64,000 bases of DNA, taken from sequence record PV295200.1, one strand, 5' to 3'. This document shows positions 255 through 62,937 of the stretch, one piece after another. A program made the translations under genes and the position numbers. This DNA is from Escherichia phage vB_Eco_BCPEco_001. The notes under the pieces are model-generated. The model saw nothing but the letters and a program-made list of their open reading frames with translations, was not told the origin of the DNA and ran no database searches. Numbering within the stretch: the first letter of the stretch is position 1; each line of letters begins with the position of its first letter.

Positions 255-2765
<2,511 letters not shown>

Positions 2766-2796
2766 TTAAAATCCTTTGGGGCCTTGCGGCCCCATG

Positions 2797-4254
2797 TTAT
2801 GCTGGTGATAAAAAGGTAGAAAGTAGTACCCATTCGCCGTCTTTACGAACGTAAGCTTGCCCATCTCTTGGAGCTTCAGGAATATAACCTGCTTCTTGTA
2901 GATCTTGAACGCTGCTCTGTAAAGAGGATATATCGTCTTTAACTGTATTTACTTCCTGCGTGACTGCCGCAATGTTAGTTTCATTCGTTTTTACAGAATT
3001 AGTTAATCCTCGTTCTTCAACAGTTGATCCGTCAGGATTATTTCCATTTATAAGTGAAGTAAGTTCAATAACTTGACCTTTAATTCCTGTTCTATTATTT
3101 CCTATTTCAACTTGTATATTTTGAACATTATTGTTTAAAACTGAAACTTCTCCTTCAAGCACTGAAACTTTATTTAATAGAGATCCAGAAGGAGACGGTT
3201 GTCCTCCGCTGGAGTCAGTTCCAACAATTTGATTTAACCACGAAACATTCGCTCTTAAACCAGACGAAGTGTTTTCACCAACAATTCCGTTTAAAGACTC
3301 AATAGAAGTTGTGTGATTTTTAATTTTTCCTTTAATACTAGAAGGAATATCATCTGAACCTATAGAAGTTTCAATAGCCGTTAAGCGCTGTTTAACACCT
3401 TCACTCTGATTTAATTCATTATTAATAGATTCAATGCTACTTTTGTTATTATTAATTTCTGTTATTATAGAAACATTTTCTGGGTATCCAATAGAAGATT
3501 TAATTTCTGCTATATCAGAATTTATTAAAGTTTGTTTATCATCTATAGTGTTTAATCTATTATAAATATTTGGTCCAAAATCTACTGGTTTATTACCAAG
3601 TTCATCGCGTAATTTACCAACTTCAACCGTCAATGATCCTACGTCAGATTCAGTAAATTTATTTTCTAATTCACTTAAACGAATGCCTTGTGAAGATAAT
3701 AATGTACTATTTGTTATTATTCTATGTTTCATTCCTGTGCTAGCATTACCAACAACAGGAAGACCGTTAATGTCTTGGCCAGAATATTGCCCTAGTTCTT
3801 GTTTAATCCACAATAAATCATTTCTAATTGTTCTATAAACAGAGTTTTCTTCATCATTAAATGGACCTATATCAGCAATAATTTTGTCAACTGTATTATT
3901 AGTTCCAGTTAATATATCAGTGTGTTCATTAGTAAGTGTCTTTAAATTTGATATGTCATTTTTATTAACACTGATCTGCGATAGTGCTTCTATATCTCCT
4001 GATACATCTAAAACTCCTTGAATTGTTTTAATATCTTTCTGCGATGTTTCAATGGCAGTTTTAAGAATTCCTATATTTTCGTCAAGAACCTCAACATTTT
4101 TAAACACGGAAACAATTGGTCTATTCATTGATCCATCGTTTCCATACTTAGTGCTAGCTCCTAGTATTTCTTCACCATTTTTAATCCATGAAATACGTTC
4201 CTGACCTTCATCAGGAACGCTATCAACAAAAGGTAACTCTTTTAATTCAATCAT
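2797..4254 (-). CDS. wac: fibritin (whisker antigen control protein)
   Basis: 485 aa, long Ser/Asn/Leu-rich coiled-coil repeats, C-terminal foldon [27 protein letters not shown]. Confidence 0.9.
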
Positions 4255-21714: not shown

Positions 21715-22399
<685 letters not shown>

Positions 22400-22400
22400 T

Positions 22401-22452
22401 TTCACAAAGTTGTTTACATACTGATGAGGTAGTGATACTATTACCTCATCAA
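22401..22452 (+). promoter_or_regulatory. early promoter embedded in stem-loop (PeSL-type cassette, copy 1)
   Basis: TTTCACAAAGTT-GTTTAC, 18-nt spacer, TG-n-TACTAT; inverted repeat TGATGAGGTA...TACCTCATCA encloses the -10. Confidence 0.6.
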
Positions 22453-22472
22453 AATTAATTAGGAAAATAAAA

Positions 22473-22730
22473 ATGAAAACTTTCAAAGAGTTTGCTACAA
22501 AAACTACTATCACTGAATCTTCCCACGGTATGGAAGTAAAGCTTGGAATGGCTTTAGCTGAAGCTGAGCGTCTTTTCTCTCGTATTAAAGAACTTGCTGC
22601 TGCGGTCGATCCTTCATCTTTTAAAGGAGACCAAACTAAAGTTAAAGCACTTTTAGCATTATGCTCCGATGCAGGAGAAATTGCTAAAAATGGTTCTAAG
22701 ATGAAGAAACGATTAGAAGATTTAAAATAA
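22473..22730 (+). CDS. internal-protein-like protein with capsid-targeting-type N-terminus
   Basis: 85 aa; N-terminus MKTFKEFATKTTITE resembles the T4 internal protein leader MKTYQEFIAE cleaved after Glu. Confidence 0.5.
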   Translation: MKTFKEFATKTTITESSHGMEVKLGMALAEAERLFSRIKELAAAVDPSSFKGDQTKVKALLALCSDAGEIAKNGSKMKKRLEDLK

Positions 22731-22782
22731 TTTCACAAAGTTGTTTACATAGGGTTTTAGTTGTGATACTATTACCCTATCA
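22731..22782 (+). promoter_or_regulatory. early promoter in stem-loop (PeSL-type cassette, copy 2)
   Basis: Near-identical to copy 1 over about 35 nt including the preceding gene's last codons (gatttaaaataa); inverted repeat ATAGGGT...ACCCTAT. Confidence 0.6.
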
Positions 22783-22806
22783 AAACAAAACCAAATGGAA
22801 ATCAAA

Positions 22807-23040
22807 ATGAAAACTTTCAAAGAGTTTATCGCTGAAACTGCTGATGTAAAAGTTGAGTTTATTTACACTGGCAAGAAAGATAAAATGGGTGAAATGCCTC
22901 ATGGAGTTCTTCGTGATGCATTAGATAATTTCGGTCAACTCGCCGCAGAAGATTACGGTGATAAAATTGTTGTTACTGGTCCTGCTGCAGTTATTGAAAA
23001 ATGGGCAGCAGAAAATAAATCAATTTTTCGTAAAAAATAA
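22807..23040 (+). CDS. internal-protein-like protein with capsid-targeting-type N-terminus
   Basis: ATG at 22807 gives MKTFKEFIAETADV..., nearly identical to the T4 IP leader motif; 77 aa. Confidence 0.5.
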   Translation: MKTFKEFIAETADVKVEFIYTGKKDKMGEMPHGVLRDALDNFGQLAAEDYGDKIVVTGPAAVIEKWAAENKSIFRKK

Positions 23041-41940: not shown

Positions 41941-42656
41941 AAAAATATTTTACTATCTATAAAACTGAAATATTAAATTTAAAGACTGGCGTTAAGAAAT
42001 ATTATTATGGTCGACATATAACTAATAATATCAATGATTCGTATGTTGGTAGTGGAAATTATATAGAACGTGTAAAAGTGTCAAATGACCACATATTATC
42101 AAAAACGGTTTTAGAAGTTTTTGATAATTATGATAAAATGGTACAAGCTGAAATATTATATATCATGGCAGGTAAATTGAAATATGGAAAAAACTGTGTT
42201 AACCTGTCATACGGGGGTGAAGGAGGAAAGGTTGCAGATGAAACTAGAATAAAATGCAAAAAGCATTCTATAAATTTATGGAAAAATCCTAATCATATAC
42301 AGCATATGAAGAAAAAGATGAAAGAGGTCACATCCACGCCGGAAGCTAAATTAAACACTTCAATAAAAACTTCGCAACGATATAAGGACCCGGTTTTTGT
42401 TAGAAAAGTTAGTAATATTATTAAAAAGAAACTAAGCAATCCTGCAGTAAAAGAAAAGCATATTAATGGAATTAAAGCTGCAAAGCGTTCTCATTTAACT
42501 ATATGGCAGTATGAAGATGAATTATTCGAGCTTTGGAAAGAAACTAAATGTGGATGGAGAAAATTTACAAAGGAAGCTATAAAACACGGATATCCAAATG
42601 AACCGTATCGTAGTATGGTATCAACTTTTCAGAAAAGACATTTAGAAGAATCCTAA
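41937..42656 (+). CDS. Seg-like GIY-YIG-type homing endonuclease (diverged)
   Basis: 239 aa; N-terminal FTIYKTEILNLKTGVKKYYYGRHITNN...YVGSG aligns with SegB and the 15571 ORF; Lys-rich C-terminal tail. Confidence 0.5.
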   Translation: MKKYFTIYKTEILNLKTGVKKYYYGRHITNNINDSYVGSGNYIERVKVSNDHILSKTVLEVFDNYDKMVQAEILYIMAGKLKYGKNCVNLSYGGEGGKVADETRIKCKKHSINLWKNPNHIQHMKKKMKEVTSTPEAKLNTSIKTSQRYKDPVFVRKVSNIIKKKLSNPAVKEKHINGIKAAKRSHLTIWQYEDELFELWKETKCGWRKFTKEAIKHGYPNEPYRSMVSTFQKRHLEES

Positions 42657-52405: not shown

Positions 52406-53038
52406 ATGAATTATGACAGAATCTATTCAAATCTAGTTAATTCTGCTGAACACCCATCTAAGCCCCGTCAAACTAAAGCCGGGTATGAACTTCATCATAT
52501 AATTCCAAGAAGCATGGGTGGTCCAGATGATTTAGACAACTTAGTATTTTTAACTTATAAGGCCCACTATACTGCTCATCATTTATTGGCTAAAATATAT
52601 GGTGGAAAGATGTATGATGCATATTGGATAATGAGTAATAGTAAGCATAGAAAAGTTACTTCTTCACAATACGCGTATGCAAAAGCTAAGAAATTTGAAA
52701 ATCAGCGTGGCGCAAAAAGAAGCGATAAAACTAAGAAGCTAATGAGCATAGCTAGGTCTAAAGTAACTCTTCCTGATGATTTTGGAAAAAGGATATCTGA
52801 TGGGCTAACAGGAAGAACTTTGTCTACTAGTCATAAAGAGCATATCAAAAATAGTTCTAGAAATCGCTTTAACACCAAAACGGTTATTGGCTATTCACCA
52901 GACGGAAATACAATAGAACTAACTGGAGCAACTGAAATAAGAAATGCAGGATTTTTTCATTCTGCTGTTTATAAATGTTGCAAAGGAATTCAATCTATTC
53001 ATAAGGGATATACTTGGAAATATAAAGATGAATTATGA
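52406..53038 (+). CDS. HNH homing endonuclease
   Basis: 210 aa; HNH motif ELHHIIPRSMGGPDDLDNLVFLTYKAHYTAHH; between nrdD and nrdG, overlapping the nrdG start by 11 nt. Confidence 0.7.
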   Translation: MNYDRIYSNLVNSAEHPSKPRQTKAGYELHHIIPRSMGGPDDLDNLVFLTYKAHYTAHHLLAKIYGGKMYDAYWIMSNSKHRKVTSSQYAYAKAKKFENQRGAKRSDKTKKLMSIARSKVTLPDDFGKRISDGLTGRTLSTSHKEHIKNSSRNRFNTKTVIGYSPDGNTIELTGATEIRNAGFFHSAVYKCCKGIQSIHKGYTWKYKDEL

Positions 53039-53498
53039 TAGAATATACCCGTGCTGCTTTGTTAATGGTCCTGGATGCAGGGTCGTTCTCTTCGTCACTG
53101 GATGTTTGCATAAATGCGAAGGTTGTTATAATCGTAGTACTTGGAATGCTCGTAACGGACAGTTATTCACTATGAATACCGTTAAAGAACTTGCGTCCCA
53201 TTTAAGCAAATCGTATATCCAAGGCCTTACCTTAACCGGTGGTGACCCACTTTATCCACAGAACCGAGAAGAGATTTCAAATTTAGTTTCTTGGGTTAAA
53301 GCAAGATTTCCGGAGAAAGATATCTGGTTGTGGACAGGATATAAGTTTGAAGATATTAAACAGCTAGAAATGCTTAAATATGTTGATGTTATTATTGATG
53401 GGAAGTATGAGAAAAATCTTCCGACTAAAAAGCTGTGGCGAGGATCAGATAATCAGCGACTTTGGTCAAATACCGATGGGGTGTGGAAACATGATTAA
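53028..53498 (+). CDS. nrdG: anaerobic ribonucleotide reductase activating protein (radical SAM)
   Basis: 156 aa from ATG at 53028; CxxxCxxC-type cluster GCLHKCEGCYN. Confidence 0.85.
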   Translation: MNYDRIYPCCFVNGPGCRVVLFVTGCLHKCEGCYNRSTWNARNGQLFTMNTVKELASHLSKSYIQGLTLTGGDPLYPQNREEISNLVSWVKARFPEKDIWLWTGYKFEDIKQLEMLKYVDVIIDGKYEKNLPTKKLWRGSDNQRLWSNTDGVWKHD

Positions 53499-58921: not shown

Positions 58922-59941
58922 ATGAAAATACTAAACTTGGGTGATTGGCATTTAGGCGTTAAAGCTGATGATGAGTGGATTCGCGGTATTCAAATTGATG
59001 GAATTAAGCAAGCGATAGAATATTCTAAGAAAAATGGAATTACGGTATGGATTCAATACGGTGATATTTTTGATGTACGAAAAGCGATCACGCATAAAAC
59101 TATGGAGTTTGCCCGTGAAATAGTTCAAATGCTTGATGGTGCTGGAATCACATTACATACTATTGTAGGAAATCACGATCTCCACTACAAAAATGTAATG
59201 CATCCAAATGCTTCTACTGAGCTTTTGGCTAAATATCCTAATGTTAAAGTATATGATAAGCCTACTACAGTAGATTTTGACGGGTGTTTGATTGATTTAA
59301 TTCCTTGGATGTGTGAAGAAAATACTGGTGAAATTCTTGAGCATATCAAAACTTCATCTGCTTCTTTTTGTGTTGGTCACTGGGAACTGAATGGATTTTA
59401 TTTTTATAAAGGAATGAAATCTCACGGTCTTGAACCTGATTTCCTTAAGACTTATAAAGAAGTGTGGTCTGGTCACTTCCATACTATCTCTGAGGCTGCT
59501 AACGTTAGATATATTGGGACACCATGGACACTAACTGCAGGTGACGAGAATGACCCTCGTGGGTTCTGGATGTTTGATACAGAAACAGAACGAATGGAAT
59601 TTATTCCAAACAATACTACCTGGCATCGTAGAATTCATTATCCATTTAAAGGAAAAATTGACTATAAAGATTTTACAAATCTATCAGTACGTGTTATAGT
59701 AACTGAAGTAGACAAAAATCTGACGAAGTTCGAATCTGAACTAGAAAAAGTTGTGCATTCATTACGAGTTGTGTCAAAGATTGATAACTCTGTCGAGTCA
59801 GATGACAGTGAAGAAGTTGAAGTTCAATCGCTTCAGACATTAATGGAAGAGTATATTAATGCAATTCCAGACATCACCGATTCTGACCGTGAAGCACTTA
59901 TTCAATATGCAAATCAGCTATATGTAGAGGCAACACAATGA
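58922..59941 (+). CDS. 47: recombination endonuclease subunit gp47 (Mre11-like)
   Basis: 339 aa; phosphoesterase motifs LGDWHLG, GDIFD, GNHD, GHWE, GHFH. Confidence 0.9.
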   Translation: MKILNLGDWHLGVKADDEWIRGIQIDGIKQAIEYSKKNGITVWIQYGDIFDVRKAITHKTMEFAREIVQMLDGAGITLHTIVGNHDLHYKNVMHPNASTELLAKYPNVKVYDKPTTVDFDGCLIDLIPWMCEENTGEILEHIKTSSASFCVGHWELNGFYFYKGMKSHGLEPDFLKTYKEVWSGHFHTISEAANVRYIGTPWTLTAGDENDPRGFWMFDTETERMEFIPNNTTWHRRIHYPFKGKIDYKDFTNLSVRVIVTEVDKNLTKFESELEKVVHSLRVVSKIDNSVESDDSEEVEVQSLQTLMEEYINAIPDITDSDREALIQYANQLYVEATQ

Positions 59942-60201
59942 CTTTTGATGAATTTAAAAATGTTATGATGAGTCAGCATTTTGAATGCGAAGTAAAAGAT
60001 GATATTGGGCATAAAGAAATTATTGAATATTGGTTTGAACCACTAGAGGTTGAAGATAATTGTATTAAAAAGGTTACGGTCTGCACTGACTGGGCTGTAT
60101 CTTTTAACTTCAACATTTTAGATAATGACACACCTAAATCATTACAAGATATGGCTGTATCTTGTATTAAGGATGCATACTGTGAAGTTTTCGACATTTG
60201 A
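59938..60201 (+). CDS. hypothetical protein
   Basis: 87 aa, ATGA overlap with gp47. Confidence 0.45.
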   Translation: MTFDEFKNVMMSQHFECEVKDDIGHKEIIEYWFEPLEVEDNCIKKVTVCTDWAVSFNFNILDNDTPKSLQDMAVSCIKDAYCEVFDI

Positions 60202-60388
60202 CATTAATGATGAATTCATAGCAAACATTGATTATACCGAAGAAGATTCTAGATATGTTGGAATAATTTATATTACATCAAAAACAGCACAAGGTGTTGT
60301 TTGCATGGCTGAATTTGATGAATACTTTTTAGATTATGATGATATGATAGAATGGTCTAAAAGATACATTAAAAGGAATCTTTTGTGA
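60125..60388 (+). CDS. hypothetical protein (start uncertain; possible GTG start at 60182)
   Basis: ORF track 60125..60388; the GTG at 60182 with AAGGAT RBS reproduces the start context of the downstream HNH gene. Confidence 0.35.
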   Translation: MTHLNHYKIWLYLVLRMHTVKFSTFDINDEFIANIDYTEEDSRYVGIIYITSKTAQGVVCMAEFDEYFLDYDDMIEWSKRYIKRNLL

Positions 60389-61239
60389 AGAATTTTAAAC
60401 TTGACATTAATGATGAATTTTTAATAAAGGAATTAGTTGAAAAATTAGCGTTGAGTGAAGAAGACGCCAAGTCTTACATTAATTTTATTTCTATGAATTC
60501 AACTGTTAAAACTCCAGGTAAAACGGAAGCACACCACGTGCTTCCTAAATCAATATTTCCTGAATATTTAAAATCTACATGGAATTTAGTTAATTTAAGT
60601 CATTTTAATCATTTTAAAGCACACTTCTTATTAGCAAAAGGTAAAAATGGAAAAATGCTAAATGCTTTAAATAGAATGATGTCAGGGAAAACATATAAAA
60701 ATTTATCTTTAGCCGAAGTTGATTTAATAGCTGCTGAATATAGTTTTATAAAACAAGATGTAAGTGACACAATATCAAAAAGGCTTCAACAGTATTATTC
60801 AAATCCGCAAAATAGAAATGCTGCTAGAGAAAGGGCATTAAAATATTTTTCAGTAGCAAAAAATAGGAAAGATAACAAAGAAAGATTAAATAATTTTAAA
60901 ACAAAACAAAAAATTTCAATGGCTTCAAGGGAATGGTTTAATAACGAAGAAAACAAAATTAAACACCAAAAGGCTGTTCGTGCTGCTTTATCAAAACCTG
61001 AATATAAAATAGCTATATCAAATTCAGTAGCTGCTAGTTGGAAAAATCCGGAGATTAGAAAAGCTCATATAGCATCTAGACGAAAAGGCTATCATTGGGA
61101 TAATAAAGATAAATTGTATGAATTGTGGATATCATATAATCGTCCTAAACATGTGATGTTTAGGAAAATGTTAGTTAAGAATGGATATCCAATAGAGGCT
61201 TCATTACAGGCTTTAGTTAAAGAATTTTCTTCATTGTGA
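60385..61239 (+). CDS. HNH homing endonuclease
   Basis: 284 aa, GTG start with AAGGAA RBS; HNH motif EAHHVLPKSIFPEYLKSTWNLVNLSHFNHFKAH; Lys-rich repeated C-terminal modules; between genes 47 and 46. Confidence 0.7.
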   Translation: MKNFKLDINDEFLIKELVEKLALSEEDAKSYINFISMNSTVKTPGKTEAHHVLPKSIFPEYLKSTWNLVNLSHFNHFKAHFLLAKGKNGKMLNALNRMMSGKTYKNLSLAEVDLIAAEYSFIKQDVSDTISKRLQQYYSNPQNRNAARERALKYFSVAKNRKDNKERLNNFKTKQKISMASREWFNNEENKIKHQKAVRAALSKPEYKIAISNSVAASWKNPEIRKAHIASRRKGYHWDNKDKLYELWISYNRPKHVMFRKMLVKNGYPIEASLQALVKEFSSL

Positions 61240-61254
61240 ACAATTGGATACAAA

Positions 61255-62937
61255 ATGAAATCATTTAAACTTAATAGAGTAAAATATAAAAATATAATGT
61301 CAGTTGGTCAAAATGGAGTTGACATTCAATTAGATAAGGTTCAAAAAACTCTTATTACTGGACGAAATGGCGGTGGTAAGTCTACTATGCTAGAAGCCAT
61401 CACATTTGGGCTTTTTGGCAAGCCATTTCGTGATGTAAAGAAAGGCCAATTAATAAACAGCACAAATAAGAAAGAACTTTTAGTTGAACTGTGGATGGAA
61501 TATGATGAGAAAAAGTACTATATCAAAAGAGGACAAAAACCAAACGTTTTCGAAATCACCGTTAACGGTACACGTCTTAATGAATCTGCCAGCAGTAAAG
61601 ATTTCCAAGCAGAATTTGAACAGCTTATCGGAATGTCATATTCCAGTTTCAAGCAGATTGTTGTCCTTGGTACAGCAGGGTATACCCCTTTCATGGGTTT
61701 GTCGACCCCTGCGCGAAGAAAGCTTGTGGAAGACCTGCTTGAGGTAGGAACATTAGCTGAAATGGATAAGCTTAATAAAGCACTAATACGTGAATTAAAT
61801 TCGCAGAACCAAGTGCTTGATGTTAAAAAAGATAGTATTATCCAACAAATTAAAATATATAATGATAATGTTGAACGCCAGAAAAAATTAACTGGCGACA
61901 ACCTTACTCGTCTACAAAATATGTATGATGATTTGGCAAAAGAAGCTAGAACGCTAAAATCGGAAATAGAAGAAGCTAATGAAAGATTAGTTAATATTGT
62001 TTTAGATGAAGACCCAACTGATGCATTTAATAAAATCGGTCAAGAAGCAGTTTTAATTAAATCAAAAATTGACTCGTATAATAAAGTCATTAATATGTAT
62101 CACGAAGGTGGATTATGTCCAACCTGCTTGTCACAATTAAGTTCCGGTGATAAAGTTGTTTCTAAAATTAAAGATAAAGTTTCTGAATGTACGCATTCGT
62201 TTGAACAGCTTTCAACACACCGTGATAATTTAAAAGTTCTTGTTGATGAATACCGAGATAATATTAAAACCCAACAGTCGTTGGCAAATGATATTCGCAA
62301 TAAAAAGCAATCTCTAATCACGACAGTAGATAAAGCTAAAAAAGTTAAAGCGGCTATAGAAAAAGCATCTTCTGAGTTTATTGACCATGCTGATGAAATA
62401 GCACTGCTTCAAGAAGAACTTGATAAAATTGTTAAGACAAAAACTAATTTAGTAATGGAAAAATACCACCGAGGAATTTTGACTGATATGCTCAAAGATT
62501 CTGGTATTAAAGGTGCTATTATTAAAAAGTACATTCCATTATTTAATAAGCAGATTAACCATTATCTTAAAATAATGGAAGCGGATTATGTGTTTACATT
62601 AGATGAAGAATTTAATGAGACAATTAAATCCCGCGGTCGTGAAGATTTTAGTTATGCTTCATTTAGTGAAGGTGAAAAAGCACGAATTGATATTGCTCTT
62701 TTATTTACTTGGCGTGATATTGCTTCTATTGTATCTGGTGTTAGTATTAGTACATTAATACTCGATGAAGTGTTTGATGGGTCATTTGATGCCGAAGGTA
62801 TTAAAGGTGTAGCTAATATTATAAATTCAATGAAAAACACTAATGTTTTTATAATTTCACATAAAGACCATGACCCGCAAGAATATGGTCAGCATCTTCA
62901 AATGAAGAAAGTTGGTCGATTTACTGTAATGGTTTAA
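61255..62937 (+). CDS. 46: recombination endonuclease subunit gp46 (Rad50-like ATPase)
   Basis: 560 aa; Walker A GRNGGGKST, central coiled coil with CPTC zinc hook, signature SGGE-like FSEGEKAR, Walker B LILDEVFD. Confidence 0.9.
   Translation: MKSFKLNRVKYKNIMSVGQNGVDIQLDKVQKTLITGRNGGGKSTMLEAITFGLFGKPFRDVKKGQLINSTNKKELLVELWMEYDEKKYYIKRGQKPNVFEITVNGTRLNESASSKDFQAEFEQLIGMSYSSFKQIVVLGTAGYTPFMGLSTPARRKLVEDLLEVGTLAEMDKLNKALIRELNSQNQVLDVKKDSIIQQIKIYNDNVERQKKLTGDNLTRLQNMYDDLAKEARTLKSEIEEANERLVNIVLDEDPTDAFNKIGQEAVLIKSKIDSYNKVINMYHEGGLCPTCLSQLSSGDKVVSKIKDKVSECTHSFEQLSTHRDNLKVLVDEYRDNIKTQQSLANDIRNKKQSLITTVDKAKKVKAAIEKASSEFIDHADEIALLQEELDKIVKTKTNLVMEKYHRGILTDMLKDSGIKGAIIKKYIPLFNKQINHYLKIMEADYVFTLDEEFNETIKSRGREDFSYASFSEGEKARIDIALLFTWRDIASIVSGVSISTLILDEVFDGSFDAEGIKGVANIINSMKNTNVFIISHKDHDPQEYGQHLQMKKVGRFTVMV

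Follow-up and report, generated by a model that had tools for sequence, protein, structure and literature searches.

Short regulatory repeats found at gene starts in T4-type phages, known as PeSL (promoter-early stem-loop) cassettes, act as homeologous recombination sites through which genes are shuffled. Among the mobile elements of these phages, free-standing homing endonuclease genes (HEGs) were treated in a 2010 review of T4 as intergenic, with overlap of or coupling to upstream genes, and in its list the target of mobC was given as unknown and no gene 46 HEG appeared (PMC2988022). T4 mobE is wedged between the packed genes nrdA and nrdB, where its start overlaps the upstream stop (UAAUGA) and coupling has been suggested (PMC2790892, PMC2988022). 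The MobA element, a Mob-type HNH cassette in the T4 topoisomerase gene 39/60, disrupts a segment of its target and brings along a diverged replacement for it, 'homR'; the target is still functional and its site altered, and the long ORF (open reading frame) is split in two with 55–75 nt deleted, together with extensions and a translational bypass (bioRxiv 10.1101/2022.08.31.505936). Here we describe a short repeat in a 64,000-nt stretch of Escherichia phage vB_Eco_BCPEco_001 (sequence record PV295200.1; this whole stretch is referred to as the window, and features are on the plus strand unless noted) which is shared by the starts of gene 46.1 and of an HNH endonuclease ORF placed between 46.1 and gene 46. 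We read the repeat as a scar left by recombination where a selfish, free-standing Mob-type HNH homing endonuclease gene begins, including a move of this gene from the 46.1 slot, and give this reading a probability of about 0.7.

The three consecutive genes of interest are 46.1 (60182–60388; 68 aa, a DUF5487 protein with no assigned function), the HNH ORF (60385–61239; GTG start, 284 aa, a Mob-type free-standing homing endonuclease by homology), and gene 46 (61255–62937), which encodes a Rad50/SbcC-like recombination nuclease subunit and is the presumed target gene of the endonuclease. The gene 46 product is the phage Rad50 homologue and is required in recombination-dependent replication. The exact 19-nt sequence TTGACATTAATGATGAATT occurs twice in the window, at 60198–60216 where it forms codons 6–12 of 46.1, and at 60401–60419 in the HNH ORF, and a repeat search lengthens the pair to 45 nt with 78% identity (60181–60225 and 60384–60428) and a start-to-start spacing of 203 nt. 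Both copies are in frame after a GTG preceded by AAGGA, with 46.1 reading MKFSTFDINDEF and the HNH ORF MKNFKLDINDEF. The first-pass annotation, made from the sequence alone, had reported these duplicated in-frame sequences encoding DINDEF and was right to do so; it had also placed 6 nt between the AAGGA-type site and the start codon of both genes, which is correct for the HNH ORF (60379–60384) and has to be amended to 7 nt for 46.1 (60175–60181; the initiation region of AAGGAT, 7 nt and GTG can be read in the sequence at 60169–60184). In contrast to the PeSL cassettes, the 46.1/HNH locus (60150–60440) has no early promoter or stem-loop excess, and the shared part consists of the Shine-Dalgarno sequence (SD), start codon and coding sequence.

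Some likeness might be expected by chance between the starts of two genes in an AT-rich genome, as each gene requires an SD and a start codon. We nonetheless regard coincidence as practically negligible, as there were three matches to the 19-mer with up to three mismatches compared with 0.18 expected, none of 100 dinucleotide-preserving shuffles reached three, and when the whole window was scanned for adjacent ORFs with first codons in common, five pairs were returned compared with 0.03 expected.

The origin of the HNH start becomes apparent when the window is aligned with T4, which has no HNH gene here and in which the 46.1 stop overlaps the gene 46 start, AAGGAA-N6-GTGAAGAATTTTAAACTT. T4 gene 46 begins AAAAGGAATCTTTTGTGAAGAATTTTAAACTT followed directly by AATAGAG; the window is the same as T4 through the CTT before this point, i.e. 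for the 18 nt of GTGAAGAATTTTAAACTT, and rejoins T4 from TTTAAACTTAATAGAG onward, after 870 nt without a T4 counterpart. The ancestral gene 46 initiation region (60373–60402; AAGGAA, 6 nt and GTGAAGAATTTTAAACTT, identical to the T4 46.1/46 junction) now belongs to the HNH ORF, and the 870-nt insertion relative to T4 lies at 60403–61272, in frame after gene 46 codon 6, with boundaries that can slide within a 9-nt direct repeat, TTTAAACTT (60394–60402 and 61264–61272). Because gene 46 of the HEG-less T4 starts identically, the HNH SD, GTG and first six codons (MKNFKL) are, judged by this alignment, the original start of gene 46, the downstream target, and not that of 46.1. With the cassette in frame after codon 6, the HNH ORF would therefore be translated from the original SD and GTG of gene 46, and as this GTG overlaps the 46.1 stop (GTGA) its translation may be coupled to that of 46.1. 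In overlapping the stop of the gene before it the HNH ORF is like mobE; it differs in that mobE is intergenic and shares no codons, whereas the overlap seen here was inherited from the old 46.1/46 junction.

The first-pass annotation had proposed that the HNH gene acquired the ribosome-binding site (RBS) and first codons of its upstream neighbour. The borrowing of an initiation region and codons stands, but the AAGGAA site, the GTG and the opening 18 nt of this ORF agree base for base with the T4 gene 46 start, and 46.1 gave 17 nt only. These 17 nt, GACATTAATGATGAATT (60403–60419), are at the 5' edge of the insert and correspond to codons 7–12 of T4-type 46.1 as well as to codons 7–12 of the HNH ORF; the second copy of the 19-mer is thus made up of the TT at 60401–60402 plus this 17-mer, and the first copy is native 46.1 sequence, with a DEF/xANIDY context kept across 46.1 variants. 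Had the HNH gene instead copied the RBS and about 12 codons of 46.1 in one duplication as it integrated, the AAGGA, the GTGAAG and the 19-nt exact identity in the same register would all be accounted for. We consider such a single event very unlikely, because the first 18 HNH nt match the T4 gene 46 start at 18/18 positions and 46.1 at only 12/18, and because the resemblance of the two starts exists in T4 without the HNH gene, leaving only the 17 nt as specific to 46.1. Aligned at the start codon, the 46.1 and 46 starts share 12/18 nt in T4 and 16/21 in variant phages, and the AAGGA...GTGAAG half of the repeat is, on this comparison, an older 46.1/46 resemblance which is already there in HNH-less T4. 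The 5' end of the HNH ORF is accordingly best described from the alignments as a mosaic of the gene 46 start with six codons, six 46.1 codons, and then the endonuclease proper.

At its other end the cassette carries a replacement initiation region for gene 46 (61240–61272), consisting of the spacer ACAATTGGATACAAA, which includes a weak GGA SD, and then ATGAAATCATTTAAACTT (61255–61272), which is identical to the ancestral GTGAAGAATTTTAAACTT at 13/18 positions. The new start region, ACAATTGGATACAAA-ATGAAATCA, encodes MKSFKL compared with the MKNFKL of T4; nothing has been deleted relative to T4, six codons have been duplicated, and gene 46 stays one ORF. Among the matches listed, the ATGAAATCA start of gene 46 in Tequatrovirus was seen only together with the HNH gene, and the HEG-less genomes align only from TTTAAACTT onward. 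The nearest described analogue is the 'homR' of MobA, as the gene 46 cassette also brings a diverged version of the part of the target which it displaces; in contrast to MobA, it duplicates six codons, deletes nothing, and is fused in frame to the start of its target. In phages carrying the HEG, gene 46 would be expressed from this different and weaker-looking initiation region, and the predicted target of the enzyme is the T4-type 46.1/46 junction (GTGAAGAATTTTAAACTTAATAGAG).

The identical 9-nt direct repeats on both sides of the 870-nt insert could also be taken for the target-site duplication of a transposon-like element. This can be given little more than nominal weight, as there is no transposase, there are no terminal inverted repeats at 60403/61272, and the only ORF is the HNH ORF. 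The 9-nt repeat is contained in a diverged 18-nt version of the start of gene 46, as recombination predicts, and no copy of the unit is found at unrelated sites, with all full-length DNA matches to the cassette sitting at the gene 46 locus. The one transfer between genera which we describe below was made with homologous flanks and not by precise transposition.

On protein homology, the HNH ORF belongs to the Mob family of free-standing homing endonuclease genes, in which it is an uncharacterised member. Its product matches PHROG 655 ('homing endonuclease'; E 7.8e-45) and PHROG 12434 ('HNH endonuclease'; E 4e-15), T4 MobD with 30% identity (tblastn, E 2e-11), and MobC (BLASTP, E 3e-9), which aligns across a predicted catalytic motif, HH...NLVNL...H..H, at approximately residues 50–80 (EAHHVLPKS...NLVNLSHFNHFKAHFLLAK in the HNH protein and ELHHIIPRS...NLVFLTYKAHYTAHHLLAK in MobC). 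A search of NCBIfam with the ORF returned no family, and a related-locus search of IMG/VR with the protein returned no match. The gene is present in approximately 71 of 518 Tequatrovirus records, with T4 and many others keeping the uninterrupted 46.1/46 junction, and decayed copies occur in T2 and RB68 (frameshifted, 204 and 208 aa) and in P0054 (frameshifted at the C-terminus). All members of the HNH cluster are at least 97% identical, begin MKNFKLDINDEF, and have the 17-mer.

Several further features of the HNH coding sequence can be recorded here. A GC-rich inverted repeat at 60525–60545 (GGAAGCAC...GTGCTTCC) lies inside the TEAHHVLP codons and was flagged as a minus-strand terminator-like hairpin, and some 165 nt (60516–60680) are approximately 74% identical at the DNA level to mobC-type genes of other phages despite the distance between the proteins. 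Two distant paralogues, presumably other mob-type genes, were found elsewhere in the window (1501–1758 on the minus strand and 42390–42629 on the plus strand; tblastn E 1e-6 and 7e-4, respectively). We had considered the HNH gene of phage Ac3 as a diverged natural orthologue and rejected it, as this copy is synonymously recoded toward E. coli codons. The Ac3 HNH gene and gene 46 start (OK040907.1, approximately 1162–2110 of the locus, equivalent to 60385–61330 of the window) share about 71% DNA identity with the window between flanks of about 99%, and nearly all of the differences are synonymous changes to E. coli-preferred codons, with a GTT start and one frameshift; the segment looks like codon-optimised synthetic DNA or an assembly chimera.

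We next consider where the 17-mer came from. The N-termini of 46.1 proteins vary between lineages, with the T4 type beginning MKFSTFDINDEFIANIDY, a variant type MKTFEFNL[G/D]DEFVANIDY, JS09 MTKTDYEIHRHEFSIGDGY, JS98 MKMYKHDFHIGDGW and STP4-a MKLHEFNLGNGWYGNIEY, and in every variant GATGAATT (DEF) and xANIDY are conserved; DINDEF itself aligns with the FNLGDEF and FNLGNGW of other 46.1 alleles. Orthologues of the HNH protein (44% identity) do not have the DINDEF segment and begin MIDAETILK or MTKTDYETQIYK (the starts are MIDAETILKAAFPQWEG in Gelderlandvirus UoN_LG358_1 and MTKTDYETQIYKILKTSFPSWEG in Mosigvirus phiEC1). Because alignable 46.1 homologues in four genera carry the same context, DINDEF is native to 46.1, and the direction of transfer is, as far as these alignments indicate, from 46.1 to the HNH ORF. 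The opposite direction, with DINDEF native to the endonuclease and T4-type 46.1 the footprint of an imprecisely deleted HNH insertion, draws on a loose likeness between the Gelderlandvirus HNH start MIDAETILK and INDEFLIK, and on the high variability between lineages of the N-terminal half of 46.1 compared with its conserved C-terminal half. We think it improbable, as the 46.1 proteins of four genera, some of them from genomes in which the HNH gene is absent, keep the DEF/HEF position and the xANIDY/GNIEY that follows it, the 17-mer runs on into native T4-type 46.1 sequence on both sides, and the homology of the HNH protein to its orthologues starts only at about residue 13–16. A wider N-terminal protein homology between 46.1 and HNH proteins was also tried and rejected, as it rests on 12 common residues only.

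The orthologues occupy the place of 46.1 itself. In Mosigvirus, the HEG-less JS09 has the order 46.2-46.1-46, and phiEC1 is the same as JS09 through the 46.1 ATG plus 22 nt, continues with HNH sequence, and is JS09-like again at the gene 46 start; the HNH gene has replaced the body of 46.1, with the 46.1 initiation region and seven codons retained. In Gelderlandvirus, the HEG-less S16 and STP4-a have the order 47-46.1-46, and compared with these UoN_LG358_1 and Melville have an HNH gene in place of 46.1 from the ATGA overlap with gene 47. It should be noted separately that in variant HEG-less T-even genomes (L015–L017; 1501 and 1704) the 46.1 start ATGAAGACTTTTGAATTTAAT (MKTFEFN) is identical at 16/21 positions to the gene 46 start GTGAAGACTTTTAAGCTTAAG (MKTFKLK), and there are hints in these sequences that 46.1 could itself go back to an earlier insertion after the opening codons of gene 46.

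Under the reading that we prefer, in which the repeat is the scar of recombination, the HEG lineage would first have been in the 46.1 slot, which the orthologues in phiEC1 and Gelderlandvirus still occupy, and fused after 46.1 codon 12. The postulated intermediate would have had the structure 46.2-[46.1 codons 1-12::HNH]-46 with the junction ACATTTGACATTAATGATGAATTTTTAATAAAGG. The likeness of the 46.1 and 46 start regions would then have allowed an unequal (homeologous) exchange or a template switch, in which a genome with 46.1 contributed its gene 46 start (...GTGAAGAATTTTAAACTT) and the carrier its 46.1 start (...GTGAAGTTTTCGACATTT continuing as GACATT...). Gene 46 nt 1–18 would thereby have been joined to 46.1 nt 19–35 with the reading register preserved and an intact 46.1 in front. 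The 3' end of the cassette would re-supply gene 46 with a slightly different start, a weak SD followed by ATGAAATCATTTAAACTT, and the altered first codons of gene 46 probably give HEG-carrying genomes immunity to the predicted enzyme. The cassette would spread by break repair with short co-converted flanks.

Several results count against this account. Neither the GenBank phages, IMG/VR and the JGI metagenomes nor the cluster of HNH proteins yielded the intermediate: a BLAST search of 50,697 phage records with a synthetic 46.1(1–12)::HNH junction gave two-piece matches only, and IMG/VR and the JGI metagenomes were covered by exact pattern scans. A search for the reciprocal product, in which gene 46 nt 1–18 would be followed by a second 46.1, was negative as well. 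The spacer at 61219–61254 was tried as a remnant of the 46.1 3' end and rejected (local alignment to JS98, S16, STP4-a, JS09 and T4; p 0.06–0.9 compared with shuffles). The assignment of the HNH protein is also affected, as there was no match to a Pfam HNH model at E ≤ 0.1 and a PDB sequence search matched no solved structure.

Mobility of the composite start is seen in a metagenomic contig from Logan (L008; ERR10686928). Its genes 47 and 46.2 and the 5' half of its 46.1 are of the Mosigvirus type and are followed by a tract of the window type (98–100% identical) which runs from the shared AGGTGTTGTT in mid-46.1 to approximately nt 70 of gene 46 and includes the composite HNH start; beyond the tract the sequence is again of the Mosigvirus type, being 95–99% identical to phiEC1 and 65–80% to the window. 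Judged from these identities, the contig has the footprint that homing with short co-conversion tracts would leave. In the coordinates of the contig the Tequatrovirus-type tract in the Mosigvirus backbone is approximately 1.02 kb (2650–3680), and the crossovers are in short shared motifs.

The same contig bears on whether the 17–19 nt are kept identical as a functional site, whether as an operator or site bound by the endonuclease (compare the autorepression of I-TevI), as a translational enhancer located after the start, or as an RNA structure with control over both genes. Such a role might be suspected from the exact identity beside unrelated sequence, from small palindromes (CATTAATG; inverted repeat I5), and from the operator-like copies of homing sites near T4 intron-encoded endonuclease genes (PMC2988022). 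L008 has the HNH 17-mer beside a 46.1 without a matching 17-mer and the HNH 17-mer therefore needs no matching 46.1; there are also HEG-less phages with other 46.1 N-termini, and the orthologous HNH genes lack the segment. The RNA structure of the three start regions was no better than that of shuffles (z +0.43, -1.10 and +0.48), promoter-like matches numbered 10 with 9.2 expected, and neither of two terminator-like hairpins is at the repeat. As the HNH copies are at least 97% identical, the identity can be explained without selection. We conclude that a functional role is unlikely and that the repeat probably has no function of its own; it appears to be a historical scar and the practical consequences are modest. 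What the locus does suggest is that a selfish endonuclease gene can enter a site without intergenic DNA through fusion to the first codons of its target, and for annotation, that the T4 comparison gives the right starts for gp46 and the HNH protein in T6-, T2- and RB51-like phages.

A parallel case in the window spans 52406–53048. Here mobC (52406–53038), whose product has 209/211 aa identical to T4 MobC, starts from the nrdG upstream region plus seven codons, ATGAATTATGACAGAATCTAT (MNYDRIY), and nrdG has its new start at 53028, ATGAATTATGATAGAATATAC. The T4 reference genome (locus L014) likewise has MNYDRIY at the N-termini of both MobC and NrdG, RB51 has an empty nrdD–nrdG site with the same upstream sequence, and another HEG at the nrdG site (KK4/UFV-AREG1 type, L006) keeps 13 nrdG codons where mobC keeps seven. 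The likeness to the gene 46 HEG is close, with the same protein family, an ORF starting from the upstream region and first codons of its target (seven codons for mobC), and nrdG given a near-identical start; the difference is that mobC borrows codons from the downstream gene only, whereas the gene 46 HEG adds 17 nt of the upstream 46.1. Because mobC/nrdG repeats the pattern, with the codons in common with the downstream target gene, start capture is recurrent. The first-pass annotation had suggested such a recurrent mode from the nrdG case, and in this it was borne out; in the nrdG case too the codons are shared with the downstream gene and not with the upstream one. We note as a separate matter that several of the first 39 nt of nrdG are not the same in alleles that accompany a HEG as in the allele of the empty site.

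We suggest tentatively, and as something rather less probable than not, that in-frame capture of the target RBS and first 6–13 codons, with a variant replacement start at the 3' end of the cassette, may represent a general rule by which Mob-type HEGs integrate in T4-like phages, one that has so far gone unremarked and would open to them overlapping-gene sites without intergenic DNA. Repeated rounds of this at the gene 46 start may have made the paralogous 46.1/46 starts, with 46.1 a possible relic of an older insertion. The mobC/nrdG signature in T4 also suggests a simple sequence rule for spotting the targets of homing endonucleases. Full-text searches of the literature, the SegH/Hef paper (Sandegren et al. 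2005) aside, returned no description of the composite start or of the codons shared by mobC and nrdG.

Other pairs of ORFs with similar starts in the window are of a different nature or weaker. The 22473/22807 pair was considered as a third case and rejected, as it has repeated early-promoter and stem-loop modules which represent a different, known route. These ORFs (22473–22730, 85 aa, and 22807–23040, 77 aa) have no Pfam match, are just downstream of Acb1 (21941–22399), and share their first 7–11 codons (MKTFKEF, 24/30 nt) and nothing else in the coding sequence; the near-identical modules upstream of them at 22400–22470 and 22735–22805 (GTTTACAT...GTGATACTATTACC) look like PeSL-type cassettes. 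Two weak pairs, 34964/35524 (MNSFEL/MDIFEF) and 43417/45698 (MYDNLI/VQDNLN), have 12 of the 15 nt that follow the start codon in common.

The window is a Tequatrovirus segment in which the locus is 100% identical to Salmonella phage BCPSen_003 and approximately 99% identical to T6, RB51 and PP01, with the gene order a-gt, 47.1, 47 (58922–59941), 46.2, 46.1, HNH ORF and 46. Gene 46.2 (59938–60201) encodes an 87-aa protein matching Pfam T4_Y03C (E 1e-43), is annotated as 46.2 in PP01 and T4, and contains the SD and start of 46.1 within its 3' end. An alternative start for 46.1 at the ATG at 60125, raised in the first-pass annotation, would overlap 46.2 by 77 nt and is backed by no comparison. 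On the sequence comparisons, the best-supported start is the GTG at 60182, because of the annotation of T4 and PP01, the register of the Pfam profile, and an ATG at exactly the same position in variant phages. Counted from this GTG, residues 1–66 of 46.1 match positions 1–66 of the 66 in PF17589 (DUF5487; E 4.5e-50), and homologues of 46.1 are found in four genera, Tequatro-, Mosig-, Dhaka- and Gelderlandvirus.

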